Numbered from the stretch's first letter, positions 8,594 through 26,620 are shown. The stretch is 64,000 bases of DNA from Vulcanimicrobiota bacterium (GCA_963714015.1 OY970223.1:1152001-1216000), one strand, 5' to 3'. The notes: generated by a model not told the origin, from the sequence alone. Numbers and translations are program-made.

Positions 8594-8618
8594 CGCCGGC
8601 GAAAGGAAAGCCGGCGTT
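8594..8618 (+). terminator. Hairpin downstream of VOC operon
   Basis: CGCCGGC-gaaaggaaa-GCCGGCG. Confidence 0.45.
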
Positions 8619-8627
8619 GATGGCAAG

Positions 8628-8680
8628 GTAGGGGCGCTTCCCCATGCCGCAGGGGCCGCCCTAACGCTATGCTAGGGCCG
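8628..8680 (+). promoter_or_regulatory. Conserved box + -10 (leaderless promoter), module 1
   Basis: GTAGGGGCGCTTCCCCAT (8628-8645), 22 nt, TATGCT (8668-8673), 6 nt, GTG 8680. Confidence 0.7.
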
Positions 8681-9238
8681 TGCCAATCTCGGACGTCCTC
8701 GCCACGGTTTTGCTGCAGCGGATGCGCGATATGGATCGTGCCGAACGAAGTGTGCTCGATGTACGCATCGGTCATGGGTCAGCGGTTTCGGCTTGCCGTG
8801 CTGGCCGCAGCGACCGGACTATCGGAAGAACGCGTTCGCGCCGTGCTGGAGAAGGCCAGCGTGCTCCAATTCGTGATGTGCGAAGATGGGGAAAGCGATT
8901 GGTATGCCTTCCGCCACGCCTTAATTCGCGATATCGCGTACGAAGAATTTATCGGTAACCGCGTGCGTCCGATACACCGGCTTATCGCTCGCGCGCTCGA
9001 ACGCTGCGCCGATGCAAAGCACGTTCCGATCGACGATCTCGCGTACCACTCCTGGGCCGCCGGCGATGCCGAGCGCTGCGTGCGCTATAACGAACTTGCA
9101 GGCGATAGAGCCGCGGGGGCCTTTGCAAACCACGATGCTCGAATTTACTATGCGCGCGCGCGCGAGTTTGCAGACCCTAATTCCGAGCATTATCGCCGCT
9201 TGACCGGGAAACTCGTCCGGCTGCAACAGGACGGGTAG
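8680..9238 (+). CDS. Stand-alone winged-helix/arm fragment homologous to the middle of AAA-LuxR regulators (frameshift near 8760)
   Basis: MPISDVL..LLQRMRDM.. then YAFRHALIRDIAYEE..HRLIARALE..LAYHSWAAGD; paralog of 24555..25109. Confidence 0.8.
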
Positions 9239-9258
9239 CCGGCGTCACGCGCCGAAAA

Positions 9259-11962
9259 GTGCGCCATGAGGCCGTCGCGGTGATCGTACGACCCGTCCTT
9301 TGCCGTCCGTTCGTCGGCCGGCGCCCCGAACTTGCGTATCTTCGGGAACGGCGGCTCGAAGCGGGCGCTTCGCGCGGCAGTCTGGTCTTCATCGCGGGAG
9401 ACGCGGGGCTTGGCAAGTCTCGTCTTATCGCGGAGTTCAGCCAGAGCTTTGGCCTATTCTCGTTGGCGGATCGCGCGCGGGCCGTGCCGCGAGTTCGGCG
9501 GCCGTCCATACGGTCCGATCTTGGATGCGCTTTCGAGTGTCGATCGCGGCGCCGCGCAGATAACGCCGGCCGAATCCAAGCGTCAATACTTCGAAGCAAT
9601 CATCGAAGGCTTTGCGCACATCGCCTCGCGCCAAGCGTTGGTCATCATCATTGAGGACTTGCATTGGGCCGACGCAGCGACGCTGGATCTCCTGGCGTAT
9701 CTCGGATCGCAAGTGCACCGAATGCGCGTTCTCGTGCTCGCGTCGTTTCGTCCGGGCGACCTGCATGCCGGACATCCGGCAGCCGCCGGAATCGAGAAAG
9801 TAGGCCACGCAGCCCGCGCGGGCCGCGTCGATCTCGGTCCCCTCCAAGGGCGTCGAACTGCGCACGTTCATCGACGAGGCCCTTTCCGGTTTCACCTTGG
9901 GCCGGAAGAAAAAGCGGGCCATTGCCCTGGCAGGCGAAGGCAACCCGTTCTTTACCGAGAGAGCTGCTCAAGAACGCAGTTCAGGAAGCAGCAGAAAATC
10001 AACAATGCGACGACGACGGCCGAGTACCGCACAGCGTACGCACCACGCTGCTCGAGCGATTGCGTCCGTTCGAAAGTGACGACCGCCGAATCGTAACGCA
10101 GGCAGCCGTAATCGGCCGGACCTTCTCGCTCGACCTTCTCGCCGACGTCATCGGCACCGAGCCGGACCTTCTCGTTCCGGCACTGCGGCGCGCTCGCGAT
10201 TTTCAGCTGATCGAGGAACTCGCGCCGAGTCTGTTTCGCTTCCGGCATGGTCTTACGCGCGAAGCGATCTGCAGCGAGTTTCTTCGCACCGAATTGCGGC
10301 CGCTTCATCGCCGAATCGCGGTCAGTTTAGAGAACGCACTCACCGGCGAACGGTCGGTCGAAGCGCTCGCGTATCATTGGTGGGCCGCGGGCGACGACGA
10401 GTGTATCGTCCGGTGATAACGAATTGGCAGGCGATGCCGCACGCCAAGTATTTGCGACGACAATGCTATCGCATTTTACGAGCGCGCGTTGGAATCGAGG
10501 AAGGTCGAACCAATCGTGCAAGGTTCAATTTTAGAGAACATTGCCAATCTGCGATTGTGTCAGCATGGCTGAAGAAGGTCCGGCGACCGTATTCTCCGGT
10601 GGTGTACGTCTTCAAGGCTGCGCGGACCGTTCAAGCGGGAAGCGGTGTGAAGCACTAGTGGCGATGACTGCCTACAGAGCGATCTTGCCGGTAGGAGTGC
10701 TTCACTCGAACAAATGCTCGAACGTTTGGAGCCCGGCGAATATCTCGCTCGCGCTCGGCTTCATCTGGGCATCGCCTGGATTGCGCAGGCGTTGCGTTTT
10801 CCGTCGCGCGCAAGCGTCGCATCTCGCTCTGGTCGATCCTCGCGCCGCGGGGATGCGGCCGCGTTCGGTGCGGTATCACAACGTCGCAGCGCGTCACGCT
10901 GCGGCGCTCGGAGATGAGCAGGGTTTTCGCCGCGAGCAGCGGCTTGGCACGATCCAGCGCGCTCGCACGGCGCGGCGCGATACCGGCGTTTAATACAATG
11001 GAGCGGAGTTCTTCCCATCCTTCGGTTTCATGAAGAAGCGCGTCGAAAATATTCGCAAAGCGCTGGACGTCGCGCGCGAAAAGAAAGCCGGCACGTCGAA
11101 GAGGCACCTACGCCACGGCGGCGCTGGCCACAAATGAGCGGCGATTGGCAAGCGGCCCGCACTGCGGTCGAATCGGTTTCCACGACGTCCGATAACCGTG
11201 TCAATATCACGTTTCGACGGCTGCGGGAACCGCCGTTGGAACGTATCTCGGCGATGAGGCTTTGATCGAAAAATGGTGCGACGGATCGAAGATACGATGA
11301 CAATCGCTCCCGAGATCGAATGCGGGCACGGTTTCGCGGAAGTTCTCGTTCGCAGAGGCCGTCACAAGGATGCGCAGCGGCTGCTGCATCGCGTACTCCC
11401 AAAATGCGAAGTAGTGCGGGGAGAGGTTCTGATGCTGCTCGCGATAGCGCGGTACGGAGCGACGGAAGATCGTGTTCAGGCACGCGAATATCTCGCGCGC
11501 GCCGGCGAGATGGGTGATTCGCTCGAGCGTTGCGCGTTGGCGCTCTTCGATGCGATCTGCGCAGACGATCGCGAAAGCGCGCCGCGTTTGGCCTTTGAAG
11601 CAGCCGAGGGTTTCAAGCGTTTCCGAACGCCGCTTCTGGAAGCCGCCGCGCGCGAAATCGCCGGAGACCTCGATTCAGCCCTCGCGTTGTACCGTCGCTG
11701 CAGCGCCGCATACCACGTGCGTCGGCTCGAAGGAACCCGTCCGACCGGCAGCGATGCGCTCGCATCGCACGATTCTCCCGAGTTTTCGGAATTTTCTGCA
11801 CGTGAACGTGAAATCGTCGTGCTGGCCGCGAACGGCGAATCCAATTTAGAGATCGCACGCAGCCTTTCAATTAGTCATAAAACCGTCGAAAAGCACCTTG
11901 GCGCGGCCTATCAAAAGCTCGGCGTCTCCTCGCGGCGACAACTACGGTCCTACGTTAAGTAG
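9259..11962 (+). CDS. AAA-ATPase (STAND)/LuxR-HTH transcriptional regulator, multiple frameshifts
   Basis: FVGRR.EL, GDAGLGKS (Walker A), IIEDLHWAD (Walker B), GNPFF, C-terminal SAREREIV..SNLEIA..ISHKTVEKHL; colinear with 21821..24514. Confidence 0.88.
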
Positions 11963-11965
11963 AAA

Positions 11966-12011
11966 GTAGGGTCGCCCACCCATACCGCGGCACGCGCCGC
12001 TCCCGTACGAT
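11966..12011 (+). promoter_or_regulatory. Conserved box + -10 upstream of PQQ beta-propeller gene 1
   Basis: GTAGGGTCGCCCACCCAT (11966-11983), 22 nt, TACGAT (12006-12011). Confidence 0.7.
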
Positions 12012-12046
12012 GGCCTGGAACCGCTACTGTCGTGGCACCGGCCACC

Positions 12047-13449
12047 ATGAAGGGAGCATTCGCTGTGAGGCGAATCTTACAAAAAATCGCAACAACCACG
12101 GTCCTGCTCGGATTTCCCGCACTTGCAGCCGGCTGCTCGCCGGGCGGTGCCGGGGGCACACCGGTGACCCCCGCGTCGATCCAACTCTCGCCGCGAACCT
12201 TTGCGGCGCAAACGGCGAACTTCTCTCCGGCCCCGGTACTGCGCCATGGCCGCAATTCGGCTACGGGGCCGGCCATACCGGATTCAATCCGCTCGAGACG
12301 ACCATCACCACTCAGAACGTTTCGAACCTACAGGTGGCCTGGAACGATCAGTCGATCGTTCAAGCCGGCGGAATCGTTGTGGACGGCGGCGTCGCCTACG
12401 TCGATGACATGGGCCAATCCAACGCGGGGCTTTATGCGCTTGACGCAACGACGGGCGCGCAGAAGTGGTATGCAAACGTCAGACTCAACGGCGCGTGGGG
12501 CAACTTCACGCATGCGGTTTCGGCGATTTCCGGCAGTATCGTGGTGACACCGTGCAGCAACGGCTCATCCACGGCGTTCCTCACCGGGCTCTGCGGCGTC
12601 AGCGTGACAACCGGTAAGATTATGTGGCGGAGATACTGCACGGAATATCAAGGCAATCCGTGCGGCGGTCTGGTCGGCGGCGGTTCATCTCCGACCCTGT
12701 ATGACGGACGCATCTTTTTTCAGAGCACGCAAGGCGTGAACGAACAGCCCGATACCCAAGCACTCAATCCGAGCACCGGCAAGATCCTTTGGGATGATGC
12801 CGGCGTGTACCGCTGCCCGGACGCCGGCGAATCGAGCTCCGATCCGCTGCCGGCCGGAAACGGACTGGTTTATGCGGTTCTGGGTTGCCAAGGACAGAAC
12901 GGCGCGACCGAACTCTGCGCGTTATCTACGGCGAGCGGAGCCGCCGCGTGGTGCGATCCATCGCAGCCTTACGTCCAGAACATGATCCTTGCCAAGGGCG
13001 AGCTCTACGTGACGGAACAGGGCAATAATGACGAAGTCGTGCTGGCGCTCAACGCGAAAACCGGCGCACAGTCGTGGACCGCGTCGCTGCCGGGCGCAAA
13101 TGGATGGGGCTCGATGGCCACCGCCGGCACAACGCTTTACGTTGAGGACGGCGGAGCCGGTGTGTTCGCACTGGGAACGGCCACGGGTCAGACGCTGTGG
13201 AGTCAGACGTCGAACGCGAATCTGTACGACGGGGGCGTTATCTCGGTCGCAAACGGCATCGTGTACACCGACGGCGGCGGCGGCAACAACGGCAATTACG
13301 CGATCGATGCGTTCAATGCAGCAACCGGCAGCCTTATCTGGTCGAGCAGCGCTATTGGAAACGGCGCTGCGGAAATGACGCCGGTGATCGTCAACGGCAC
13401 CGTGTACGCCGGCTGCTACACCGTGTGCGCCTTCAGGGTAACGGCCTGA
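12047..13449 (+). CDS. PQQ-binding-like beta-propeller lipoprotein (frameshift near 12240)
   Basis: Lipobox LAAGC; WPQFGY..GHTGFNP.E..I...NV.NL; repeated ALDA.TG..W. Confidence 0.88.
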
Positions 13450-14170
13450 TCGCTCGTCATCGGATTGCGGATCATGCAACTCACGATGCTTAGGCCCGCT
13501 GAATCTTTTATAGCGGAGCGCACATTTCGCGTTCTTGGAGGGAGGCCGGGCGGAGGCGCTGTAGGGTGTGCCTCGGCAAATTGAATGCCGGCCGTGCTCT
13601 TATCGAGAGGTCGCCGTTTGAAAATCCGGCCTCTCGCGTCTGCGCGCACGGAGCTCGTTGCGCGCGAGCAGGAACGCAACGTTCTTGCCGCGGCGCCGTG
13701 ATGCGGCCGACGCGCGTCTTAAGCGTTTCTGTGGCTGCGTTGGTAAACGCGGTGGTGAGCCTCACATTCCGCGCGCTCGACGAGCGATACGGCAAGAATT
13801 GGAGGGCGTCCGGCTCTTGCGGGGCGCTCCCCTCCATCGTTCCTTGCGGCGGCAGAGCAATGGCGGCGGGAAGGGGTATCGCGTAATCCGCATTCCCGGC
13901 TGATTTCGGTCAGAGTGTGGATTGCCGGTGGCCTCGGCTCTGCACGTCTTTTGCTAATGCTAGATATCAACGTGATGGTCACCGTTCCGGTTATCGGAAG
14001 GGCTCCGATTAGGTAAAGGGATTCCACAAGCCCTGTACCATTCTGCTGCATTGGAACGTGGCGCAAAAGCGCCAGATCTATTTGCCTTCATAGGTCTGAC
14101 GGCAGCCTTTCGCGGGCTGCTCTTTGAAGAAGGCCAGACGCTCCGGTCGTTCGGTTATAGAGGAGGTTTT

Positions 14171-15160
14171 ATGGCAAGTATTATCGTGCCGTCCGATGAG
14201 AATGGCCTCATTCTGGATCCCGCCGTAAATAACATTATTAGTCAAGCCGTAAATGTTCAACCCTTCGGGTTCGAAGACGTCATCGTGTTTTCTCACGGGT
14301 GGTCTACGAATGCCGATAGCGCAATGGATGATTACGCTATCTTTTCAATTGGCCTTGCACGGACTATGTTGTTGGCGGGCACCGCCACGCCCGGGATTTT
14401 GCCTAGTCCGCCCAGATCGTCTCTCGACATCGGCATTCATTGGCCATCGGAAATCACGGAGGACTCCAGTAGCCCGCTCACTGCTCTGCAGCTATTTACG
14501 TTCTACAAAATGGAACACCGCGCCGATGCTGTCGGCAAGAACCTTGTCTATAGCGTGCTCCGTATTGCTCTTCAAGCTCGTCAGACATCCGGACCGGTGC
14601 GATTCTTATTGCTTGGTCACAGTTTCGGTTGCAAAGTCATCTGCTCCGCGCTCCAAGATCTGGCGATCGATATCTTAGATAATAGCCTCACGGTCCCGGA
14701 CGGATCGACTTGGCGAGTTGTTCTCTTGGAACCGGCGACTGATTATGACAACCTTGAGCCAAACGATATCTACGGATCCCTCAGGGAGATCGCAAGTTTG
14801 CGATTGCTCATCACCACCTCCCAAGAAGATAGGGCACTCAGCCAATGGTACCTGGACGCGGCTCGTATCGCGAATCTTTTTCACGCGCAAGACCCAACGC
14901 CGGCGCTCGGCGCCGTGGGCCCGTCGAAAGACACCGTAGCGGCTTTTGGCGGCGTGGACGCCATAGCGGTCAATACCGACTTCACTATACCTATGATTAC
15001 TGCGACGACACATCAGTTAGTCATCGCCGACCTTACGCCGGTACATCAGGCGCGTCTAGCATGTGTCCCACCTTCATACGCAGGTGGTTTATCCGGTTCG
15101 CATTCCGACATTTATTTTGAGCAAATCTATAATCTCGTTGGGGGCTTTCTGTTCTCTTAA
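14171..15160 (+). CDS. Alpha/beta hydrolase-fold protein
   Basis: AGGAGG RBS; VFSHGW, IHWPS, nucleophile elbow GHSFG, C-terminal HSDIY; lower GC than neighbours. Confidence 0.75.
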   Translation: MASIIVPSDENGLILDPAVNNIISQAVNVQPFGFEDVIVFSHGWSTNADSAMDDYAIFSIGLARTMLLAGTATPGILPSPPRSSLDIGIHWPSEITEDSSSPLTALQLFTFYKMEHRADAVGKNLVYSVLRIALQARQTSGPVRFLLLGHSFGCKVICSALQDLAIDILDNSLTVPDGSTWRVVLLEPATDYDNLEPNDIYGSLREIASLRLLITTSQEDRALSQWYLDAARIANLFHAQDPTPALGAVGPSKDTVAAFGGVDAIAVNTDFTIPMITATTHQLVIADLTPVHQARLACVPPSYAGGLSGSHSDIYFEQIYNLVGGFLFS

Positions 15161-15579
15161 AACTACTTGTTGCAAATCACGGTGAACGAGATGCCATTAG
15201 TGCTGTCGCTCACGTTCCTGTGGCTTGCAGTGCTAAACGCCGTGCGGCATCGCGCTCCGTTGATTCCGAGCGCCCAAAACGGCCGTAAAGCTGCGGGCGA
15301 GAAATTGCAAGAATCGCCGCTACTGGAACTCCGCGCTCGATCGATTCGTTCAAAGCAATCCGCCGCTAGCGACAGATCGCCCGGGCGTTATTGCGCCGAA
15401 ACAGCGCGAGATCCCAATAGCGCCGATTGGCGCTATTTATATTCATCGTTCGGGATCGGTATCGCGACGAAAAATTGCGCGCTGATGCCCTTGACCAGAA
15501 AATAGACGTGTTGCTCGCGGGCGCCGCAGTTCCAAGGGAGTTTCGGCTGGCGCTACCTGCGCCCGTGGCCCAAACCAGC

Positions 15580-15794
15580 GGCATGATGCCGAAGTGTTCG
15601 GCGGGATGATCGTCTCGACCGTACTCAATCTTATTTTCGTGCCCGTGCTGTACGTGACGTTCGCAGCAATGCGCAAGCGCGCGACGTTACAAGTCGCGTA
15701 CTCCGGCTCGCATGCCGCGCCTGGTAACGGAGCCAAGGTTCACAGTGAGAGCGGCGCTGCCGCGAACTTCATCTCCGGCGGGGAGGTGGACTGA
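15580..15794 (+). pseudogene. C-terminal remnant of RND efflux permease
   Basis: VFGGMIVSTVLNLIFVPVLY matches the last TM of the AcrB family; no upstream part. Confidence 0.7.
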
Positions 15795-16096
15795 GCGATG
15801 TTCTCGGCGCATCAACAAAATTATTTCATCGCTGGGGTGTGCTTGTGGGAGCAGCCGCCGCACAAAAAAGCCGCATAGGCACATTCGCCTCCCGTTCCGC
15901 GGACAGCGCGAAAGGCGCCAAGAGTTCGTACGAGCTTCATGCTGAGCGCTCCCTATAAGCAGTGTGTTTGCTCTAAGGTGCGCCCGCCGGGCGCCCGCGT
16001 ACTGCGAGGAACCACCACTTTTACGGTTAGCGCGTCGTGACGCACCCTACGGGTGGCACGCCGTCAAGGTCGAAGGCTCCCGCAGAGGGACACGCC

Positions 16097-17893
16097 ATGT
16101 TAGGTACCGTCGCCCAACCGCTTTCTCCAAGCCGGCATTCGTCGCGGACGAGCGCAACACGCTCGCTCCTTGCCGTAATAATGCTGGTCGCAACGATTCT
16201 GTTCGTGTTGTTCGACAGCGCGGCATTGATTACGGTCTGGAAAGGATGGATTCAATACCAGGGCGTTGATTTTACGCAGCAAGGCGCAAGGGTCGTTGTC
16301 GCCGACGTCACGGACCCAACGTTGTATCGGCGCGGCGTGCGGCCCGGACAAACGATCGGCTGGCGCGGGCGCTCCGAGTGGCGCGCGGCGTTTCCGCGGC
16401 CGGGTGACACCGTGCAAGTGAATACCCCTTCCGGCCGCGTACCGGTTCGCGCGGCGTATCAGCGTTTTTCGCCGGCCCTTGCCGCTGTTGCGCTAATCAG
16501 CATTTTGGGCGCCATCGCGGTGCTGATCTTCGCCGGCATTCTGTGCTACCGAAAACCGGGCATCCTAACGATAGCGTTCTGGTTGTTCGTTGCCACGGAC
16601 TTCAACGTCGGGTGGCTCATGAACGTGTACGCTCAAGCACCCGAACCTGCAGGCTACGTTCTCGTCCTGTTCGTCCTGGCGGTCCTTGGTGGTTGGGGGT
16701 ATTATCCGCTCGTGTGGTTTGCGCTGCGCTTTCCCGACGATCGCATTAACGGCAGGGCAATGCGCATTGCAGACTACTGCTGGACGGCGATAAGCGTAAT
16801 AGCACTGGCGTGGTTCCTCTACGATCTCTCGCGCGCGACGTTCCCGGGAGCGAGCCCCAGCGTGCCGATGCAGAACCAATTTTGGCGCTATACGCTTCCG
16901 CAAAACATTCCGAATGTCACCGCGCTCGTGGCGTTTCTTTGGGTGTACGGGCGCTCTACCGAAGCGGCGCGGCAACGCGCACTGTGGGCGATCGTCGGTT
17001 TTATGTTGATGATCGCGTTCGAGACGATTGGCAACTTCGCGTCGGAAATTGCGCCCGGACTCTATCTTATCGGCAACATCGCCCTCATGCTCGCAGCCTT
17101 CTGCCCTCTCGCGCTCGTGTATGCCGTGCTGCGTCATCACCTCCTGGACATCTCGTTCGTCGTGAACCGAGCCCTCGTGTACACGGCGCTAACGGCGCTC
17201 ATCGTGCTCGTCGTCGGCTTCGTGGACTGGCTGGCGGGCAAGTACCTGTTCGAGACGCGTGCCGCTTTAGCAGTGGAAGCGACCGCGATCATCGGTCTGG
17301 GTTTTTTGCTGCAGCGCGTTCACGGTGCGCTGGAACGTGCGGTCGATCGCCTTATTTTTGCATCCCGTCATTCGGCGGAACGCCATATTGAACGAGTTAT
17401 CGCCGGGCTCGCCTTCGCGCAGACGCATAATGCGATCTTGAGAGCGCTTGTAGAAGAGCCGCGCGTTGCGCTGGATCTCACCTCTTGCGGCATATTCATC
17501 GACGGTGCCGCCGCTTTCACGCTCAGGTTCGAATCGGGCTGGACGATTGACGAGGGCGCAAAAATCGAAAGCGACGACCCGTTAGCGCGATTACTGCATT
17601 CGGAGCGGCGGCCCATCAGCATCGCAGAGGCGCATTGGCAGCCGACGATCGGGGGCCTTGCCGCCGGAACTTTGGATATTGCAATGCCGCTCTTTTCGCG
17701 CAATCATCTGCTCGGCATGGCGCTCTACGGAAGGCACCGCAACGGATCCGCAATCGATCCCGAAGAGCGCAATCTCCTGTACCGCCTCTGCGAAGCTGCG
17801 GCGGTTGCTTACGAAGCAGTCGAACTCAGCCGTGCGCGCGAAGAAGTCGCAGCGCTGCGTTCGCAGCTTGCAGTTCGCCTTCCGGCGGAGTGA
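16097..17893 (+). CDS. Multi-TM membrane protein with C-terminal GAF-like domain
   Basis: FALRFP, YAVLRHHLLDI..V.NRALVY, PLFSRNHLLGMALYG.HRNG..IDPEE..LL..L; paralog of 27144..28823. Confidence 0.8.
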   Translation: MLGTVAQPLSPSRHSSRTSATRSLLAVIMLVATILFVLFDSAALITVWKGWIQYQGVDFTQQGARVVVADVTDPTLYRRGVRPGQTIGWRGRSEWRAAFPRPGDTVQVNTPSGRVPVRAAYQRFSPALAAVALISILGAIAVLIFAGILCYRKPGILTIAFWLFVATDFNVGWLMNVYAQAPEPAGYVLVLFVLAVLGGWGYYPLVWFALRFPDDRINGRAMRIADYCWTAISVIALAWFLYDLSRATFPGASPSVPMQNQFWRYTLPQNIPNVTALVAFLWVYGRSTEAARQRALWAIVGFMLMIAFETIGNFASEIAPGLYLIGNIALMLAAFCPLALVYAVLRHHLLDISFVVNRALVYTALTALIVLVVGFVDWLAGKYLFETRAALAVEATAIIGLGFLLQRVHGALERAVDRLIFASRHSAERHIERVIAGLAFAQTHNAILRALVEEPRVALDLTSCGIFIDGAAAFTLRFESGWTIDEGAKIESDDPLARLLHSERRPISIAEAHWQPTIGGLAAGTLDIAMPLFSRNHLLGMALYGRHRNGSAIDPEERNLLYRLCEAAAVAYEAVELSRAREEVAALRSQLAVRLPAE

Positions 17894-17919
17894 CGGCCGC
17901 TCCACGGTAAAAGAGTCCG

Positions 17920-18450
17920 CTAAGGTGCGCTCGGCGAGGGAATGTCCGCGGTCTTCAGATTGATGCGAAAGGCAGGACCGGCCGGACCACCCTGATCCAC
18001 AAGCAGAACCTTCGTCGGCGAATAATCGGCCGGTAATACGAATTGCATGGTTTCCCGCGCCGCGGCGCCCGGTTGCAGCGAGTAGAATGCGCTGTAGACG
18101 GTCACCGGTTTACCGTCAACGACCACGCCGTCAGCATCCGCGAGCGATCCCGCAAAGTAGCCGGTGCGTTCGGATTTTGTGCCGTTGGAGACTAACCAGG
18201 ACAGCACGATAGCGCGCTGGCCGGTCACAGGCGTGAATTCCGCCGCAGTTGAGGGTCTTATCGCCATCTTTCGAATACGAATTTTTCCGTTGAACAACGT
18301 CGACGAAAGACTTCCACTTACTCCTGAAAGTTGATTTGCGCCGCCGGGAATGGGCTTAGGGGTGGCGGAGACGCCCGGCTGCGCGCTTGAGAGCACGAGC
18401 CCAATCGTGGCAAAGCTAAAAAGCATTGCGAGAGCAATAGTGTTTTTCAT
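17920..18450 (-). CDS. Hypothetical secreted protein (Ig-like/DUF4352-like)
   Basis: Signal peptide; L.DADG...LQPGAA...F.LP pattern. Confidence 0.6.
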   Translation of the reverse strand: MKNTIALAMLFSFATIGLVLSSAQPGVSATPKPIPGGANQLSGVSGSLSSTLFNGKIRIRKMAIRPSTAAEFTPVTGQRAIVLSWLVSNGTKSERTGYFAGSLADADGVVVDGKPVTVYSAFYSLQPGAAARETMQFVLPADYSPTKVLLVDQGGPAGPAFRINLKTADIPSPSAP

Positions 18451-18569
18451 GAGCTCACCCTAACAGGGCAATCTTCCGGAAGCAATGAGCCAAAATGCTG
18501 ACTCACCGGAGTGAGACGCGTGCGCTTGCCCGCTTACGCTGGGGCCCGCGTAAGGTCTTGCACGTCACC

Positions 18570-19616
18570 TTATTGCGCCGGCTCGGATGTGAGCACCATG
18601 CGGAATCGCGCTTTCCCGCTCAACATGCGCTCGTAGGCCTCTTGCGCGCGTTCGAGCGGCATCGTTTCGACCAGCGGCCGCACACCGGTAAGGACCGCGA
18701 ACCGCATCGTTTCTTCCGAATCGACGCACGTTCCGGAAGGCCAGCCTTTAATCGAAAGCCGCCCGCCGATCATTGTCGCTGTATTCAGTTGCATCGGTTC
18801 GTGCGCCGCGCCGAGCACCAACATCTCACCGTCGATGCGCAATCCGCCGAATGCCGCTTCCATCGCTTTGGCGGACGTCGCCGTGAACGCGATGACCTTC
18901 GCGCCGCCGAGCCGCTGCAGTTCCGCCGCAACGTCCGCCCACGTGGAGTCGATGTAATGATGCGCGCCCAATTCGCGCGCCAGCGCCGCTTTGTCTTCAC
19001 CGCGCGCGATGCCGACGGTCTCAAATCCCATCTTTGCCGCGAATTGAATCGCCAGATGTCCTAAGCCGCCAATGCCGAGCACCGCAACGAGATCTCCGGC
19101 GCGTGCCGGCGAATGGCGCAGTGAGTTATAGGTCGTGACGCCCGCGCACATCAGCGGCGCCGCTTGGGCCGCGGAGAGGTCGTCCGGGATGCGTGCGAGT
19201 GCGACGGCCGGAGCGATAACATACTGCGAATATCCGCCGTCGTAAGCGAAACCGGGAATCTGCAAATTTCGGCACGCGAGAAAATCGCCGCGACGGCAGC
19301 GATCGCACGTGCCGTCGTGACCGCCGTGCCATCCGACGCCGGCGCGATCGGCGATCTTCCAACCGGAAACGCCGTCGCCGAGCGCATCGATGGTTCCGGC
19401 AATCTCATGACCCGGCGCGCGCGGAAAGACGATGGCCGGCCAAGCGTTATTGACCGCCATGAAATCGCTGTGGCAGATTCCGCACGCGTCGACTCGGATG
19501 CGCACAGTGCCTGGTGAAGGCTGTGGTATAGGGAGTTCGTACCGTTCGAGGCGATGGTCGTCCGCCGACGGCACGCGCATCGCGAGCATGGTCCTCGTTG
19601 CTGATTGAGTAGGCAT
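18570..19616 (-). CDS. Zinc-dependent alcohol dehydrogenase (AdhP-like)
   Basis: CGICHSD, PGHEIAG, CDRCRRG, APLMCAGVT, GIGGLG, GKARFRMVL. Confidence 0.95.
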   Translation of the reverse strand: MPTQSATRTMLAMRVPSADDHRLERYELPIPQPSPGTVRIRVDACGICHSDFMAVNNAWPAIVFPRAPGHEIAGTIDALGDGVSGWKIADRAGVGWHGGHDGTCDRCRRGDFLACRNLQIPGFAYDGGYSQYVIAPAVALARIPDDLSAAQAAPLMCAGVTTYNSLRHSPARAGDLVAVLGIGGLGHLAIQFAAKMGFETVGIARGEDKAALARELGAHHYIDSTWADVAAELQRLGGAKVIAFTATSAKAMEAAFGGLRIDGEMLVLGAAHEPMQLNTATMIGGRLSIKGWPSGTCVDSEETMRFAVLTGVRPLVETMPLERAQEAYERMLSGKARFRMVLTSEPAQ

Positions 19617-19710
19617 GGCCTCATCAACCGTCGCCCATCACCGGCGGTTTCATGCCATGCTCGCGTGTACGATACTTCGCAACCACGAGTAGCGCCGTCC
19701 GAGTATTACC

Positions 19711-19922
19711 GCTATTGATACGTTAACAGATCCGGCCGCGGCGAAAACCGCATCGCGTCGGCAGCGGAGAACATGTCGACATCCTGATGATAGAACAGCT
19801 TTAGTCCGATGAACGCGCCATGGCGGTCCTCGCTTAAGAGTCGATACTTACTCATCTTTCCGGCGCGCGATCCGAATCCGTCGACGTGACTCGGCTGCAC
19901 GTCGAGAATCAGCAGACCGTGT
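19711..19922 (-). pseudogene. Internally deleted partial duplicate of gene 20888..21772
   Basis: 19711-19889 matches 20887-21065 (10 substitutions by manual count); 19892-19922 matches 21353-21383. Confidence 0.85.
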
Positions 19923-20088
19923 AGCCTATGAAATGTGGACACTACGTACAAGGCGGCGGTTCAAACGACTACCCGCCGCGATGTCGTCTTAGTGCGCGCA
20001 CCGCAGCCTGAGTCCCGCGGTCCTGGGCGGCCCGCTTCATGGACTTTCACCCTAAGGATTAACCACCGCGGAGCAGGAATTCCACCGC

Positions 20089-20769
20089 GTGCGCGACTTT
20101 CGACAAGCGCGGGAACGGCGTCGTTTCTACTTGGAGCGCGGCATGAAGCGGACTCCGCGGGGAGCAGGCAGCGACCTGACGTTCCTTATGACGCTCCCTT
20201 TGGCGGAGGTAGAATTGCGTCCTGAAGACTTCGGAGACGTTCCGGCATTGGTCGTTGGCGGTGTGGCGGCGCGCGCATATGCGCCGGAGCGGCACACCAA
20301 GGACATCAATTTCCTAATTGAGCACGAGCGATTCCCTGACGCGAAAGCGCGGCTACGCGGCCTGGGATATTGCTTTCTGCGTTCGCTCGCGTTTCCAAAT
20401 ACGGGATTAGGTCTCTATGGCGAGGCGTACTCGAAAGAGCAAGTAGAAGTTGACATAATTTCGAGTCCGCAAGAATGGTGTCGGCAGGCCTTCCAGGGCC
20501 GTGTCGAAGACCGGACCGGATTGCGCGTTATTCCGCTAAGCTACTTTGTTCTCATGAAATTAGACTCCGCCCGAGGCGTGGATCAGGGTGATCTGACGCG
20601 CGTTTTGGGACGGCTAAATGAAAATGAAATAGAACAGTTGGTCGCGGTGACTGGAAAGTACTCGGCAGATCCTGAAATTGCGGAAGACGTGCGTCAATAC
20701 GCAGCCCTTGGCCGCTGGGAATTAGAATCTGAGCCGCAAGATCAGCAGGGTCGGCCTGGCGACAAATAA
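20089..20769 (+). CDS. Nucleotidyltransferase family protein (Pol-beta superfamily)
   Basis: VVGGVAARAYAPERHTKDINF, VDII, LMKL..ARG.DQGD. Confidence 0.75.
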   Translation: MRDFRQARERRRFYLERGMKRTPRGAGSDLTFLMTLPLAEVELRPEDFGDVPALVVGGVAARAYAPERHTKDINFLIEHERFPDAKARLRGLGYCFLRSLAFPNTGLGLYGEAYSKEQVEVDIISSPQEWCRQAFQGRVEDRTGLRVIPLSYFVLMKLDSARGVDQGDLTRVLGRLNENEIEQLVAVTGKYSADPEIAEDVRQYAALGRWELESEPQDQQGRPGDK

Positions 20770-20887
20770 ATCTTGCGCTTCTGTCCCATTTTGTGGTATC
20801 CAACCGGCGAACGGGCGCTGAAGCCGAATTGTTAATACTTCCATGCTCATCGACACCACCGCTAAGCCCGGGCTGAAGCATCTACGG

Positions 20888-21772
20888 CTATTGATACGTT
20901 AACAGGTCCGGTCGCGGCGAAAACCGCATCACGTCGGCAGCGGAAAACATGTCGATATCCTGCTGATAGAACATCTTTAGTCCGATGAATGCGCCGTGGC
21001 GGTCCTGGCTTAAGAGTCGATACTTACTCATCTTTCCGGCGCGCGATCCGAATCCGTCGACGTGAAAAACGATCGCCAAATCTGGCCGAATTCGTACACG
21101 CTCGCGCCCCTGTATCATGTCGCTCGTAAATTGATGGATGATAAGAAGTTTCTGCGGCAAGCGGTACTGCCTGATCAAGCTGGAGAGATAGGCCGATACC
21201 GCGTTCACCGTAGCCGCGTTCGTGCTCCCGATTACATCTCCGGGCACTTGACCCGGACCCATGCTCCACTCCGAATCCATCGCGAGTGATACGTCGGGCT
21301 CTCGCAAAAAGCGCTCGAAGCGCTCGACATACGGCAAGAACGGCGCGCGGCCCGGCTGCACGTCGAGGATCAGCAAACCGTGTGCGCTGCGAATTATGTC
21401 GAGATACCGCTGCACGGTATCGTCGTCAATCGCAGCGCTATATGCATTGTTGATTCCCGGCGAGCGTTGCGCGACCACCGCGATCAGTTCGAAGGCTGGA
21501 ATGACGGGTTCTCCATACCGCGCATACGCCTGTGCCGTTCCCTCGAGTTTCGGCAAGATTGTCGCAGGCGACGCGGTTCCCAAAATTCCCATGGCAGGGA
21601 CGCCCGCCGCGCCGTAATAAGCGACGACGCGATGCCCCGGAAAGAGCACAGGCGGCGGAAAGGCGGTAGCGCGCGGTGTGGGAGACGGCGAGCGTGCTAT
21701 GCGATGGGATGGTGCGGCGCAGGCCGTCAGTGCGAGAGTTGTGATGAGAACGAACGCCGCCGTACGTTGCAT
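20888..21772 (-). CDS. Conserved lipoprotein
   Basis: Lipobox LTAC; RVVAYYG, PAFELIAVVA, LILDVQPG, PQKLLIIHQF, HVDGFG, GLKMFY. Confidence 0.8.
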   Translation of the reverse strand: MQRTAAFVLITTLALTACAAPSHRIARSPSPTPRATAFPPPVLFPGHRVVAYYGAAGVPAMGILGTASPATILPKLEGTAQAYARYGEPVIPAFELIAVVAQRSPGINNAYSAAIDDDTVQRYLDIIRSAHGLLILDVQPGRAPFLPYVERFERFLREPDVSLAMDSEWSMGPGQVPGDVIGSTNAATVNAVSAYLSSLIRQYRLPQKLLIIHQFTSDMIQGRERVRIRPDLAIVFHVDGFGSRAGKMSKYRLLSQDRHGAFIGLKMFYQQDIDMFSAADVMRFSPRPDLLTYQ

Positions 21773-21820
21773 GCATGCTTCATTCCCCGCATTGTGCGGA
21801 CGACACGTCGGCGGCCCACG

Positions 21821-24514
21821 TCACGTGGCAAGGTACGGACCGATGTGGCTGCGCGACGAGATACTGAGCTTTCGGTAGACGGATGCCAGGTGCTTCTCAA
21901 CCGTCTTGTGCGTTATCGAAAGACTATGCGCAATCTCCAAATTGGACCGGCCGTTTGCGGCGAGTGTAGCGACTTCGCGTTCGCGCGCCGAAAGCGTCGC
22001 GACGGCACCGTGCCCGGTCGGGCGGTCGGTTTCGAGTCGGCTGATGTCATACCTTGCGCCGCAGCGTCGAAATAGGACGAGCGCTGCTTCGATATCGCCC
22101 GCGACTTCAAGCGCGGCGGCCTCGAGAAGGGGAATTCGAAGGCGCCGAAAACCCTCGGCCGCTTTCTTCGCGAGCGCGGCGGCTTCGTCTTCGCGTGCGG
22201 TCCGCAAGCACACGATCGCATCGAACAAAGCAAGTGTGGGGGCCTCGGGCAATTCATCCGACGTATCTGCCGCTCGGACGAGGTATCCGCGTGCACGTGA
22301 CCGATCTGCCGCCTCACCGTAGCGCGCCAGGGCGAGCATCGTTAGCGGCTCGCCCCGCACCATTTCGGCTTTGGGAAGTGCACGGCGCAGCAGCGCAGCA
22401 GCGTCGTGGAGCCGGCCGCGGCGGACCATGATTTCGGCAAAGCCATAGCCGCACTCGATTTCCGGGGCCGCGGATATTGTGCTTTCGAATCCGTCGAACC
22501 ATTTGTGGATCAAGGCTTCATCATCTAAATGCGCCCCGATGACGGTTCCCGCCGCGGTCGCGAACGTCACATTAACGCGGTTGTCGGTCGTCGTCGGCAC
22601 CAGCTCGACGGCGGTACGAGCACGCTCGAGATCTCCGCTCAAGACATAGCAGAGCGCAGCCGTCGCATGAGCGCACTCTTCAGCGTGCCGGTTCCGCGAT
22701 TCGCGCGCGATCGCAAGCGCACGCTCGACGTTCTCGAGCGCTTCTTCATGCAGACCGAACGACGAAAAGCACTTCGCGCCGTTGTAGTGTGCGCCTGCGA
22801 CCGCCCCCGCGCCGCGCGAACGGGCCGCCTCGAGCCAACTCGCATGCTCGCGGCGAAAGCGAGCGACATCGCCAATCAGGGTGGCGACCCAAGTTGCGAC
22901 ATTGTGGAACCGAACTCGGATGTCGGACGCGATGTTAAGCGCCCGTGGATCGACTCGTTCAAGATGATATTCGGCCCGCGTAGGAGATCCTAATGTGGCG
23001 GCCAGCCAGGCGACGCCGCAATGGAGTCGACTTCGGGCCAAGTATTCATTGGAGTCTAGCCGTGCGAGCATCTCTTCCAAAGGGGCTGTTGTATCGGACA
23101 GGCTGATCGTGTAGGCAGTGATCGCCCCGCGGACTCGGCAGACGGCCTCGCGCTCGTGAGAACCCGCGCCACGAAACGCGTCGGCGGCGGCTCGGTACGA
23201 AGCCTCACCCTCCGCGGTCAACGTCAGCACGATACGGCGATCCGCAATCTTTTCCAGGATCGAGCCTCGTACGACCGCCTCGATGCCGGGTAACTCGAGC
23301 GCGCGTTCGTAGCAAGTAATGGCGTCCTCGTGAGCGTGGACGCGTGCAGCTTCGTCGCCGGCAAGCGCGTTATATCGGGCCGATCGCGCCGGGTCTCCCG
23401 CGGCCCACCAATGAAAACCGAGCGCTTCTAAAGAGCCCTTTTCTGACGCCGAGGTCTCGAGCGCCAGCGCGATCGCGCGATGTCGCGGCTGCATCTCAGC
23501 GTCGAGAACATTGCCGTAAATAGCCTCTCGCGTCAAGTCGTGGCGGAAGCGGAACAACCCGGCTCCAATTTCTTCGACGAGTTGGAAATCCCGCGCACGG
23601 CGCAAGGTCGAGAGCAACAGCTCTTCTTCGGTCTCCAGCGTCGTAGCGAGGAGCTGCAAGCCGAACGTGCGCCCGATCACCGCCGCTTGCGTCAGGATGC
23701 GTCTTTGAGCGTCGTCGAACGGGCGTAAACGCTCGAGCAGCGTCGCGCGAACCATCTGCGGAAGCTCGCGGTCTCTGGCAAAGCTGACGTGCTCCGAACT
23801 TTTCTCGACGGCGCTTTTGAGCAGCTCCTCGGTGAAGAATGGATTTCCGTCAGCCGCAAGCGCGACCGCCCGGCGCGTCTCTTCGGGTAACGCGATGCCT
23901 GCCAGCGCTTCGTCGATGAACGTTCGCAGTTCGGTACCGCGCAGCGGGGCAAGATCGATTCGACCCGCCCGCGCGTTTCGCGCGATCTTCGCGACGGCGA
24001 CAGTCGCGGGATTCTCCGAGTTAAGTTCGTCGGTACGGAATGACGCGATGACCAAAACGCGCATGCGCTGCAGTTTCGAGCCGAGATAGGCGAGCAGCTC
24101 CAACGTCGCCGCGTCGGCCCAATGCAAGTCTTCGATAACGACGCCTAGCGCGGTGCGTGAAGCAATCGAAGCTAAACGATCGATGATCGCGTCGAACTGC
24201 TCGCGCTTCGTCGCCGCGCCGAGCTCGAACGGACGTGTATCGACGCGCGCGAGCACGTCAATGATTGGTCCATACGGCCGGCTCGCGAACTCCAAGCAAG
24301 TGCCTTGACCGATTTTCCAGCGCGAGTACACCAGTGAGCCGCAGAACTCTGCGATCAATCGCGATTTGCCGACCCCGGCATCACCGGCGATTAGCACCAG
24401 GCCACCATGAGAAGAGGCCGCTTCGAGCCGGCGCTCGCGCAAATATGCGAGCTCCTCGCGGCGTCCTACAAATGGCCGGCAAAGCACAGGTCGGACGATC
24501 ACATCGGTCGCCAT
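21821..24514 (-). CDS. AAA-ATPase (STAND)/LuxR-HTH transcriptional regulator (intact, 897 aa)
   Basis: GDAGVGKS, VIEDLHWAD, GNPFF, winged helix FRFRH, TPR-like region, LSAREREVA..SNLEIA..ITHKTVEKHL. Confidence 0.93.
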   Translation of the reverse strand: MATDVIVRPVLCRPFVGRREELAYLRERRLEAASSHGGLVLIAGDAGVGKSRLIAEFCGSLVYSRWKIGQGTCLEFASRPYGPIIDVLARVDTRPFELGAATKREQFDAIIDRLASIASRTALGVVIEDLHWADAATLELLAYLGSKLQRMRVLVIASFRTDELNSENPATVAVAKIARNARAGRIDLAPLRGTELRTFIDEALAGIALPEETRRAVALAADGNPFFTEELLKSAVEKSSEHVSFARDRELPQMVRATLLERLRPFDDAQRRILTQAAVIGRTFGLQLLATTLETEEELLLSTLRRARDFQLVEEIGAGLFRFRHDLTREAIYGNVLDAEMQPRHRAIALALETSASEKGSLEALGFHWWAAGDPARSARYNALAGDEAARVHAHEDAITCYERALELPGIEAVVRGSILEKIADRRIVLTLTAEGEASYRAAADAFRGAGSHEREAVCRVRGAITAYTISLSDTTAPLEEMLARLDSNEYLARSRLHCGVAWLAATLGSPTRAEYHLERVDPRALNIASDIRVRFHNVATWVATLIGDVARFRREHASWLEAARSRGAGAVAGAHYNGAKCFSSFGLHEEALENVERALAIARESRNRHAEECAHATAALCYVLSGDLERARTAVELVPTTTDNRVNVTFATAAGTVIGAHLDDEALIHKWFDGFESTISAAPEIECGYGFAEIMVRRGRLHDAAALLRRALPKAEMVRGEPLTMLALARYGEAADRSRARGYLVRAADTSDELPEAPTLALFDAIVCLRTAREDEAAALAKKAAEGFRRLRIPLLEAAALEVAGDIEAALVLFRRCGARYDISRLETDRPTGHGAVATLSAREREVATLAANGRSNLEIAHSLSITHKTVEKHLASVYRKLSISSRSHIGPYLAT

Positions 24515-24554
24515 ATTCGCCGTACGGAGCTGCGAGCCTACCGTGGTTTCCTGA

Positions 24555-25109
24555 TTAGCGCTCGTCCATGACTCGCAGCTTCGTTGTCAGACGTTCGTAG
24601 GCGAGCGAATCGGCATCGAGCAGACTACGTGCGCGAATGTAGTATGTCCGGGCGTCATCCTGCGCATGGACCTCTGCGGCGTTGTCTCCGGCGAGCTCGT
24701 TGTAGAGCAACGCGCGCGCGGCATCACCGGCGGCCCAAGAATGGTACGCCAAGTCCGCGAGCGGCGCATTGACGGCGGCGCGCGCTCGTTCCAGCGCTCT
24801 GACAATGCTGCGGTGAAACGGACGAATTCGGGCCGCGGGGAGTTCTTCATAGATGATGTCTCGCGTGAGCGCATGGCGAAACACGTAGAACTCGCACGTT
24901 GGATTTTCCGCCGCGGTGAGTTGGAGTCCGCAGGCTTCCTCGAGTGCAGCCCGCACCTTCGATTCCGAACACGACGCGGTGGCAGTCAGCACGGAAACGG
25001 AGAAGCGACGGCCGATCGCCGCCGCCCGCATAAGGACGGCGCGCGCGCCGCGGTCCATGCGCCGCACGCGTTCGAGGACGCTGGATCGTAACGCGTCCGG
25101 AATATGCAC
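24555..25109 (-). CDS. Stand-alone winged-helix/arm fragment homologous to the middle of the adjacent regulator
   Basis: IPDALRSSVLERV..AAAIGRRF..FRHALTRDIIY..LAYHSWAAGD; probable leaderless GTG 25109, 6 nt after TATCGT. Confidence 0.85.
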   Translation of the reverse strand: MHIPDALRSSVLERVRRMDRGARAVLMRAAAIGRRFSVSVLTATASCSESKVRAALEEACGLQLTAAENPTCEFYVFRHALTRDIIYEELPAARIRPFHRSIVRALERARAAVNAPLADLAYHSWAAGDAARALLYNELAGDNAAEVHAQDDARTYYIRARSLLDADSLAYERLTTKLRVMDER

Positions 25110-25115
25110 AGCGTG

Positions 25116-25210
25116 ACGATAACGCAACGCCACGAGGCGCGGAATGGGGGGCTACCCTATCTTTTTGGGGGTGGCCCCCCCTACTGCGTCGTCGCCGCTC
25201 CAGTTAGCCT
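25116..25210. promoter_or_regulatory. Divergent promoter region with two conserved boxes, module 2
   Basis: Minus strand: ATAGGGTAGCCCCCCAT (25160-25144), 22 nt, TATCGT. Plus strand: TTGGGGGTGGCCCCCCCTA (25165-25183), 21 nt, TAGCCT. Confidence 0.7.
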
Positions 25211-25264
25211 TGGGCGAGACGGGCGCAACTTTGCCCTTCTCTTGTTCGAAGGAGAATAACGCAC

Positions 25265-26620
25265 ATGAGGACTTCTCGTTTCACGCAGTGCTCGCTTGCC
25301 GCGGCGCTGAGTTTGGTTTTTGCGGGGTGCAGCGGCGGCGGATCGCAGGTAACGCCGTCCGCAAATTCGGGCGTCATGTCCGAACCGCAAGTTGCCCAGG
25401 CGCGCACAATCTTCGAGCCCACTAGCACGCCGGTGAATTGGAGCCAGACGGATTTCAATTCTTCGCACATCGGCTTCAATGCGGATGAGAAGACGATCTC
25501 GACAGGCAACGTCGCCAACCTCAACTTCCTTTGGGGTCAGTCGGTGACCGATGGCGTCACGGGTTTCGCGCTCGTCAAAGGGACGATCTTTGCTCAAAGC
25601 TCGAATTCGTCGGGGCCTCCGATGCTCATCGCCCTGAACGCAACAACGGGAACTATTTCGTGGACGGCAAGAACAGGCGCTGATGGGTATCCCGAAAACG
25701 GGACGGTTGCTACCGGAGGGGGCGATGCGTACGTGGGCTGCGGGACTAAGGCGACGGGCAATCCCGGAGGAGTATGCGCTTTCAGTGAGGCGTCCGGGAA
25801 GCGACTGTGGGCCTACATTCCCGATTGTAAGTGTCAATTCAACGGTACCGTAGCGTCACCGCTGGTCTACTCGAACGGTGTCGTATACTATGGCGTAAGC
25901 GGTTTTCCGGGGCAATCGGATCCGTACGTCGTCGCTTTGAACGCGCAGACCGGAAAGCCGATATGGTCTTACGATCCCGGATCCGGAGCGCTCGGTAGTG
26001 CGCCTCTTGCCGTGAGTGGCGGGAACGTGTTCTTCGATTGCGTCACAGCAGGAAATGCCGAGGGGATCTGCGCCGTTAAGAACAGCGGCGGCTCCCTGTT
26101 GTGGCAGGCAACCACCGGAAATACGTCCACGGCATTCAGTATTGCGGCCGGCGTGCTTTACGCCAGCAACAATCAAGACGTCGTCGTCGCACTAAATGCT
26201 GGGACGGGAGCAGCGCTGTGGTCGTCCGCTGCCGCGGTCGGCAAGAGCGCATTTCCGCCCGCGATCGCGCTTGGCTCTGTTTACGTTGCGGGTAATACCA
26301 GCATTTCAGCGCTTAAGGCGACGACGGGAGAGCAACTCTGGTCCAATACGCTCGCGTGTTCGCCGGAAAGCTCCCCATCCGTTGCCAACGGCGTTGTTTA
26401 CGTCTATCAAGGTGGAAATAACTGCCCCGCGGTATCGGCCTTTGACGCTAAGACAGGGGCGCTGCTGTCGAGTATCACAACCTCAACTGCCTCGTTCGCT
26501 GTTTCGCCGGTCATCGCAAACGGAACCCTGTACGTCGCTGATGGTGTATGCGGAAGCCTCTGCGCCTACGTACCGAGTCAGGCGCTCAGACAGAGACTGC
26601 CGACGACCATTCTACGGTAA
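25265..26620 (+). CDS. PQQ-binding-like beta-propeller lipoprotein
   Basis: AAGGAG RBS; lipobox FAGC; WSQ.DFN..H.GFNA.E..I...NVANL; repeated ALNA.TG..W. Confidence 0.92.
   Translation: MRTSRFTQCSLAAALSLVFAGCSGGGSQVTPSANSGVMSEPQVAQARTIFEPTSTPVNWSQTDFNSSHIGFNADEKTISTGNVANLNFLWGQSVTDGVTGFALVKGTIFAQSSNSSGPPMLIALNATTGTISWTARTGADGYPENGTVATGGGDAYVGCGTKATGNPGGVCAFSEASGKRLWAYIPDCKCQFNGTVASPLVYSNGVVYYGVSGFPGQSDPYVVALNAQTGKPIWSYDPGSGALGSAPLAVSGGNVFFDCVTAGNAEGICAVKNSGGSLLWQATTGNTSTAFSIAAGVLYASNNQDVVVALNAGTGAALWSSAAAVGKSAFPPAIALGSVYVAGNTSISALKATTGEQLWSNTLACSPESSPSVANGVVYVYQGGNNCPAVSAFDAKTGALLSSITTSTASFAVSPVIANGTLYVADGVCGSLCAYVPSQALRQRLPTTILR

Follow-up and report, generated by a model that had tools for sequence, protein, structure and literature searches.

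The window analysed here, 64,000 nucleotides (nt) from a Vulcanimicrobiota bacterium (GCA_963714015.1 OY970223.1:1152001-1216000), carries in two places a small gene that precedes the gene of a STAND-type transcriptional regulator and encodes a relative of that regulator's interior. We find that the small protein belongs to a conserved family under purifying selection and is not a decaying fragment, and its predicted structure indicates that it is a free-standing copy of the winged-helix domain (WHD) and arm of a MalT-type STAND activator. STAND proteins (MalT, Apaf-1, NLRs and Avs among them) are activated by the release of autoinhibitory contacts that involve the winged helix and arm, and to our knowledge tuning of this switch from outside is known for very few members. 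The finding adds a conserved, unannotated family made of exactly the switch domains and linked, in what appears to be an operon, with its full-length relative.

A small-protein family under purifying selection

The small genes are designated sm1 and sm2, and the regulators that follow them regulator 1 and regulator 2 (Table 1). Regulator 2 has the layout of the LAL/MalT-type STAND activators (P-loop ATPase, helical-repeat sensor and LuxR/GerE helix-turn-helix (HTH)) and is assigned to them on the basis of its sequence. Pfam places AAA_16 at residues 14-156 (2.4e-20) and GerE at residues 840-890 (1.6e-14), with a TPR_12 match at 5.5e-05 that lies under its cut-off. In NCBIfam the protein stays under the MalT equivalog cut-off (PRK04841, 25.7 bits against 537), the similarity to MalT being limited to the HTH. 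Sm2 aligns with residues 251-408 of regulator 2 at 42% identity (E 6e-29), and sm1 and sm2 are 55% identical across 152 amino acids (aa; E 1e-53). A Pfam scan of the two found no family, no ATPase and no GerE-type HTH. The original prediction for this stretch had placed before each regulator a short gene that lacks the ATPase and HTH, starts at a homologous residue and aligns with the regulator's centre. All of this stands, each gene starting with a GTG (8680 and 25109) that lies 6 nt past a TAnnnT sequence, save that 'centre' was loose wording for what is more precisely the pair of winged helix and arm.

A word-indexed search returned at least 154 homolog clusters at E ≤ 1e-3. The 120 that were listed run from 156 to 262 aa and none has a Pfam domain; their sources name them only 'hypothetical protein' or 'predicted ATPase', and the organism names among them all belong to Eremiobacterota lineages. 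In NCBIfam the small protein has no more than a weak and partial likeness to a STAND kinase/cyclase, and the ESM Atlas lists unnamed clusters of ~200 aa. The ends are constant across the aligned homologs, which start at (V/M)xIPDAVR and stop about 10 residues past YxRLTxKL, and 20 columns of the alignment are invariant. Across 201 sampled genomes of the phylum (the unpublished genomes G128 and G178 counting in the denominator only) there are 31 matches to the small protein in 29 genomes, including that of the window; their scores are 194-294 bits and their open frames 188-377 aa long. The 29 genomes all belong to the window's own family. Regulator centres in this sample score no more than 189 bits and, among the listed matches, lie mostly in frames of ~900 aa. 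Giant matches of 1,700-3,250 aa were considered as fused forms of the pair and rejected, their high scores coming from several WHD-arm segments. In the proteins P0121 and P0123 three AAA_16 stretches occur together with a protein kinase and a cyclase domain, and P0127 and P0129 have two AAA_16 stretches with TPR repeats.

A scan of species-representative genomes returned 69 loci (here given L numbers), 39 of which have a small-gene homolog. The ratio of nonsynonymous to synonymous substitution rates (dN/dS) was calculated by the Nei-Gojobori method for 36 small genes, leaving out L036 and L053 (split matches) and L032 and L034 (late-starting matches). Gene limits were taken from the tblastn frames; greedy calling of open reading frames (ORFs) gave spurious long frames across the small gene. 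The median ratio is 0.305 and the maximum 0.555 (558 pairs, dS 0.05-2), with values of 0.09-0.40 in close pairs. Over the 32 loci that have all parts (415-433 pairs) the median is 0.30 for the small gene, and 0.16, 0.18 and 0.24 for the N-terminus, WHD-arm and C-terminus of the regulator, respectively. The tblastn match is unbroken in 36 of 38 further loci (L036 and L053 being split), and in the 35 of these used for dN/dS an uninterrupted frame extends between the conserved start and the stop. That the small genes have constant boundaries and are under selection rather than in decay had been proposed at the outset; the recurrent ends and the low dN/dS, each in a refutation test fixed beforehand, bear this out.

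The structure of the small protein was modelled with AlphaFold2 from a 37-row alignment, giving a pLDDT of 93.3 and a pTM of 0.85. Two helices, a winged helix and five more helices are predicted, the 184-192-aa model beginning at the winged helix. VIA-align, run on the candidate list of Foldseek, returns MalT as the top match (8bob_C, Z 13.5, root-mean-square deviation 3.5 Å over 162 residues), superposing residues 10-184 of the model on MalT 246-417; the WHD of MalT comprises residues 249-336 and its arm residues 337-423, as delimited in an excerpt of the published structure report (PMC10427625). Other STAND proteins found by VIA-align are PH0952 (Z 11.0), Apaf-1 (10.9, residues 353-551) and CED-4 (10.7). 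Foldseek itself gave nothing at E ≤ 1e-3 against the PDB, where MalT was best at 5.3e-3. The small protein ends before the sensor, and it has no P-loop nucleotide-binding domain (NBD; Walker A/B), in that AAA_16 is not matched and the alignment with MalT begins at residue 246. We class it as a homolog of the STAND WHD-arm and not as a STAND NTPase.

The residues that are invariant in the WHD-arm of the regulators are kept by the small family, namely (small protein/regulator) G41/G281, F44/F284, F85-H87/F323-H325 and H107/H345. Also kept are H131/H368, N145/N382, the sequence AGD and R167/R404. F85, R86 and H87 form an FRH motif that is invariant or nearly so in the small family. STAND proteins have a conserved histidine in the WHD that contacts the β-phosphate of ADP, as stated in part of the MalT report (PMC10427625), and by sequence alignment H87/H325 would correspond to this residue.

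Association with the regulator and a shared promoter box

An orthologous regulator lies downstream of the small gene on the same strand in 35 of the 39 loci, that of L008 being cut by the end of the contig; in L028 the regulator is divergent from the small gene. The first 235 residues of these regulators are 63-80% identical to those of regulator 2. Where loci are comparable, the expected start of the regulator falls between a few nt before and about 35 nt after the small-gene stop, and in three loci of the module 1 type the genes overlap by ~60 nt. Among the matches listed for the phylum sample, which has 54 more beyond these, a regulator centre lies ~1.3 kb downstream for 27 of the 29 small genes outside the window's genome. 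The linkage to regulators in other genomes that the original prediction called for is therefore found in both surveys. Two explanations of the adjacency were rejected. A read-through fusion does not agree with the 40 nt between the sm2 stop and the regulator 2 start, which puts the genes in different frames in the window, or with the variation of the gap among loci; nor can the pair be a complementing split gene, as the regulator keeps its own conserved WHD-arm.

In a quick maximum-likelihood tree of 102 WHD-arm segments (LG+G4, with SH-aLRT support only) 37 small proteins form one clade (SH-aLRT 97), while 33 partner regulators together with four regulators that lack an adjoining small gene form another (SH-aLRT 99). 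The small proteins have a single origin, and the sub-clades of the small proteins and of the regulators mirror each other. Sm1 and regulator 1 lie in a seven-member sub-clade, and sm2 and regulator 2 in the other part. Thus the two modules of the window are old paralogous subtypes of the pair and not a recent repeat.

The region ahead of the small gene has a fixed layout, seen in the window and in L001-L037, L045 and L053, in which a quasi-palindromic box of 16-17 bp (TAGGG-N5/6-CCCCAT) is followed by 22 nt, TAnnnT, 6 nt and the start codon. The TAnnnT element is exactly 6 nt ahead of the start codon in all 38 upstream regions (GTG in 33, ATG in five). The distance from the end of the box to TAnnnT is 22 nt in 33 of the 37 regions scored, 23 nt in three and 15 nt in one, so that the box lies at about -35 to -51. 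For 37 of the 39 loci a loose form of the box pattern matches in the 150 nt that precede the small gene, and its density is 52 matches in 608,783 bases of small-gene loci compared with four in 461,654 bases of other loci. Because of the exact 6-nt spacing the transcript of the small gene is probably leaderless, beginning at the start codon. The box sits where a -35 element would be, and the promoter may be of the activator-dependent class II type, in which an activator site overlaps the -35 region at a set distance from the -10. The same combination of box, 22 or 23 nt and TAnnnT precedes neighbouring genes at all 26 sites examined. The original prediction had envisaged a circuit controlling an exported propeller; a shared promoter box is indeed present in a subset of loci, but the propeller adjoins in only 11 of 39, other exported proteins taking its place elsewhere. 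The core that stays constant comprises small gene, regulator and box, and the boxed targets vary but are exported proteins.

Possible action of the small protein on the regulator

How might the small protein act? The small gene would be the first of a two-gene operon with the AAA_16-TPR-LuxR regulator. The LuxR-type domain of the regulator would bind the box and so activate the regulator's operon as well as nearby genes for exported proteins; it is the candidate for this role because the box also occurs at L059, at L043 and beside another LAL paralog, all of which lack a small gene. In the published work on MalT and PH0952, as far as excerpts of it go (PMC4381067, PMC6468293), the arm toggles between contacts that close the nucleotide-binding oligomerization domain (NOD) and participation with the sensor in a high-affinity inducer site, the two being mutually exclusive. 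Being produced alongside the regulator, the small protein would engage it in trans by mimicking the surfaces of WHD and arm. It would occupy the NBD or the inducer-loaded sensor, or cap oligomers, and the regulator would be held back, so that a switch under positive autoregulation would carry its own negative feedback. The original prediction had proposed in the same vein a dedicated trans-acting modulator, whether decoy, anti-activator or co-activator. Binding and modulation of the regulator by the small protein, with either sign, seem to us somewhat probable. The fuller proposal, that a STAND activator is controlled by its own truncated paralog, whose free WHD-arm docks on the NBD or inducer-loaded sensor and so fixes the threshold at which a leaderless, positively autoregulated operon is activated, is finely balanced, and we incline slightly to doubt. 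The specific role of a trans-acting damper of an autoactivated regulator, working through WHD-arm mimicry, is put forward tentatively, as one that we would sooner question than assert.

A number of observations weigh against such a damper. The inhibitory sign of the effect, as opposed to co-activation, is taken solely from the analogy with MalT. The winged-helix half of the model resembles the winged helix-turn-helix (wHTH) repressors SqrR, CzrA and HlyU, with Z about 10 over about 90 residues, and on this likeness it may bind DNA. The small genes of L020, L024 and L036 have no regulator nearby, and the orthologous regulators of L040, L043, L044 and L059 have no adjoining small gene, so that the pair is not obligatory in cis. 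The clade of small proteins is not sister to that of the partner regulators; thus the small protein does not simply inherit the self-association surfaces of the regulators. Lastly, the canonical box is found in the window's genome only at 8629, 11967 and 25144 of the window and at two sites beside a different LAL paralog, at about 0.42 Mb, which has no small partner, and therefore the box is not specific to the pair of small protein and regulator. Two genomes each contain a small gene without a regulator nearby (L024, L036) and an orthologous regulator without an adjoining small gene (L040 and L043, respectively), and these co-occurrences are compatible with action in trans. Co-folding of regulator residues 1-800 with the small protein gave a score of 0.00 in both runs; the controls were not folded, and the result counts neither way.

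On the same grounds of fold, conservation and linkage the small protein could instead be a positive partner, a second arm and WHD that in trans help the sensor to form its high-affinity inducer site or bridge protomers, as a co-activator or assembly factor. A MalT polypeptide of arm and sensor binds the inducer with high affinity, according to an excerpt of that study (PMC4381067), and being first in an apparently leaderless operon the small protein should be made whenever the regulator is. Yet the regulator keeps its own intact and conserved WHD and arm, so that there is no missing part to supply, and the existence of orthologous regulators without an adjoining small gene also tells against a positive partner, which we consider unlikely. 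If instead the free winged helix bound DNA, perhaps the box itself, or RNA polymerase, the small protein would be a second transcription factor and not a ligand of the regulator. Its first ~95 residues do superpose on repressors of the ArsR/SmtB type, and a quasi-palindromic box always adjoins its gene. However, the protein as a whole fits the STAND WHD and arm better, the residues it conserves coincide with the conserved ones of the WHD-arm in the regulators, and the box is present at regulator loci that have no small gene; an independent factor of this kind appears to us quite improbable. A non-functional relic would be the truncated remnant left when the regulator was duplicated in tandem long ago, retained as a carrier of the promoter. 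Homology with an internal part of the regulator is what such a remnant would display, and the module 1 copy is frame-disrupted as assembled, but the unbroken matches and open frames across the further loci, the low dN/dS of close pairs, the constant ends, the invariant columns, the confident fold and an age sufficient for two subtypes all oppose it. The relic is already contradicted by the selection data, and we give it scarcely any credence.

Among known systems, the actinomycete LAL regulators share the architecture of regulator 2 (AAA_16 ATPase, TPR and GerE) and are pathway-linked activators; they are tied to biosynthetic clusters, whereas the neighbours here are exported lipoproteins. The truncated NLR paralogs of plants and animals usually keep N-terminal or nucleotide-binding parts, so that the likeness is one of concept, a small protein modulating a receptor, while here only the WHD and arm are kept. 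The ANR proteins, small anti-activators of AraC/XylS regulators that are not derived from their targets, are likewise alike in concept only, as small proteins accompanying a regulator. MalT of Escherichia coli has the same order of domains as the regulator (P-loop NOD, arm, helical-repeat sensor and LuxR-type HTH), and the arm on which, with the WHD, the small protein superposes is the switch of MalT in the excerpted account (PMC4381067). MalT is held in check by the separate proteins MalY, MalK and Aes, which block its oligomerization according to part of PMC10427625; these inhibitors are unrelated enzymes or transporter subunits, in contrast to the present candidate modulator, a paralog of the WHD-arm of the regulator itself, encoded in what would be the same operon. 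PH0952 of Pyrococcus horikoshii (6mfv), with a TPR sensor, aligns through residues 314-481 with the small-protein model. Its autoinhibition involves contacts of arm and sensor with the NBD; it is a single full-length protein, and the portion of its report available describes no free arm protein (PMC6468293).

A full-text literature search with incomplete journal coverage found no description of a partner consisting only of WHD and arm for MalT, LAL or other bacterial STAND regulators, and a search for Eremiobacterota together with LuxR gave passing co-mentions only. This suggests that a free-standing WHD-arm partner is an undescribed way of tuning MalT-like regulators, and modulators derived from the regulator itself would be a design principle not described for bacterial STAND regulators in the literature searched. 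If the proposal is true, it is a prokaryotic counterpart of regulation by truncated NLRs and the first natural 'arm-only' protein. Contacts of the arm with the NBD and with the sensor could be probed in trans with the small protein as a natural tool, and the box, operon and exported lipoprotein genes offer a candidate regulon for Eremiobacterota/Vulcanimicrobiota, a phylum mostly known from metagenome-assembled genomes.

The two modules of the window and their neighbours

The original prediction described the trio of small gene, regulator and propeller as occurring twice. Homologous gene sets are present at both places, as tblastn with the proteins finds all three kinds of gene at 8.6-13.5 kb. 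Module 2 (21821-26620), in which the propeller gene is divergent from the sm2-regulator 2 pair, is intact, but all three genes of module 1 (8629-13449) are frame-disrupted as assembled, with 20 disruptions in all. The start of sm2 follows from the conserved arrangement of TAnnnT, 6 nt and GTG.

Table 1. Genes and promoter elements of the two modules, in window coordinates.
Feature	Position	Strand	Description
sm1	8680..9238	+	Small gene; one extra base at 8757/8758; codons 1-26 in frame 1, remainder in frame 2 (8759-9238)
Regulator 1	9259..11962	+	Frame-disrupted; 18 frameshifts between 9439 and 11283, one in-frame stop at 10991
Propeller 1	12032..13449	+	Signal peptide in frame 2 (12032-12223), PQQ_2 propeller in frame 1 (12241-13449), frameshift between
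sm2	24555..25109	-	Small gene; ~184 aa from GTG at 25109 (longest ORF to 25133); predicted free-standing winged helix and arm
Regulator 2	21821..24514	-	897 aa; LAL/MalT-type STAND activator by its Pfam domains (AAA_16, TPR, GerE HTH)
Propeller 2	25265..26620	+	451 aa; PQQ_2/BamB-like β-propeller; lipoprotein signal …LSLVFAGC
Promoter of sm2-regulator 2 operon (putative)	25116..25159	-	Box TAGGGTAGCCCCCCAT (25144-25159), 22-nt spacer, -10-like TATCGT (25116-25121), 6 nt, GTG
Second box, toward propeller 2	25165..25183	+	Degenerate TTGGGGG-N3-CCCCCCCTA, TAGCCT 21 nt on; weaker than canonical; possible propeller 2 promoter
Module 1 promoter (putative)	8629..8673	+	Box TAGGGGCGCTTCCCCAT (8629-8645), 22 nt, TATGCT (8668-8673), 6 nt, GTG at 8680
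Propeller 1 promoter (putative)	11967..12011	+	Box TAGGGTCGCCCACCCAT (11967-11983), 22 nt, TACGAT (12006-12011); like arrangement in six orthologous loci

Frame 1 encodes the conserved N-terminus of sm1 (VPISDVLATVLLQRMRDMDRAERSVL) and frame 2 what follows it; the nearest homolog of sm1 by tblastn is the small protein of L025 (76% identity over 156 aa). The disruptions of regulator 1 were counted after the intact L026 ortholog had been aligned to 9200-12000 with frameshifts allowed. The eighteen frameshifts are packed into 1.85 kb of ortholog-like coding sequence, whereas module 2 has none in an equal length. The C-terminal 229 codons of regulator 1 (11273-11962), including the GerE HTH, are an open frame. 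After correction of the frame the identity of regulator 1 to the ortholog is 59-86% in 300-nt bins, the intact orthologs being 57-88% identical to each other, and the in-frame pieces of all three module 1 genes have dN/dS of 0.07-0.21 against their orthologs, not above the mutual values of the intact genes. Because corrected identity and dN/dS match those of intact orthologs, module 1 has either been inactivated very recently or carries consensus errors, and we regard the two as about equally probable. The window's genome is a single contig of 89.6% estimated completeness, which some indel errors would fit. A search for public sequencing runs for 8600-13500 listed none. Other LAL paralogs of this genome also switch frame, at about 0.42 Mb and 2.19 Mb of contig C1, and the frame changes in these and in regulator 1 may be local assembly errors. 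A genome-wide count of long open frames as a measure of the indel error rate is uninformative at this G+C content.

In module 2 the orthologs of regulator 2 are 61-66% identical to it. PQQ_2 is matched in both propellers and is the sole Pfam family to pass. In both the signal peptide is closed by a lipobox cysteine, read by eye from the sequence as …LSLVFAGC in propeller 2 and …PALAAGC (frame 2) in propeller 1. They remain under the whole-enzyme cut-off for PQQ-dependent dehydrogenases (TIGR03075; 63.2 and 55.4 bits against 480), and do not reach the BamB equivalog (69.1 bits against 285).

The boxed neighbours in other loci include propellers, with six out of six of those downstream having the box in addition to propeller 1 of the window, and five that are divergent. 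A divergent lipoprotein family of ~220 aa (~190-255 aa) with a box and no Pfam match is found in nine loci (L010, L012, L013, L017, L020, L021, L022, L032 and L045), where it takes the place of the propeller; it has an LLAGCAG lipobox and a PPKCKGQKN motif. Other boxed neighbours are a sedolisin-like gene (L025) and a gene of 230 aa without a Pfam match (L030). Three loci have, downstream of the regulator, a sedolisin-type peptidase gene with a Pro-kumamolisin activation domain (L025, 13063-14900; L029 and L031, about 11350-13835), and one of these genes has its own box. In L043 the box is followed by an ORF of ~130 aa without detected similarity and then by the regulator. The LAL paralog that has boxes beside it, at about 420,000-423,600 of contig C1 in the window's genome (G000; L070, 5043-8243), is 27% identical to regulator 2 and has a frame change near its N-terminus; its boxes precede a DUF5069 gene and a gene for a TTHB210-like secreted protein, and there is no small gene at this locus. 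The boxed target genes have leaders of 20-60 nt with AGGAGG-like sites.

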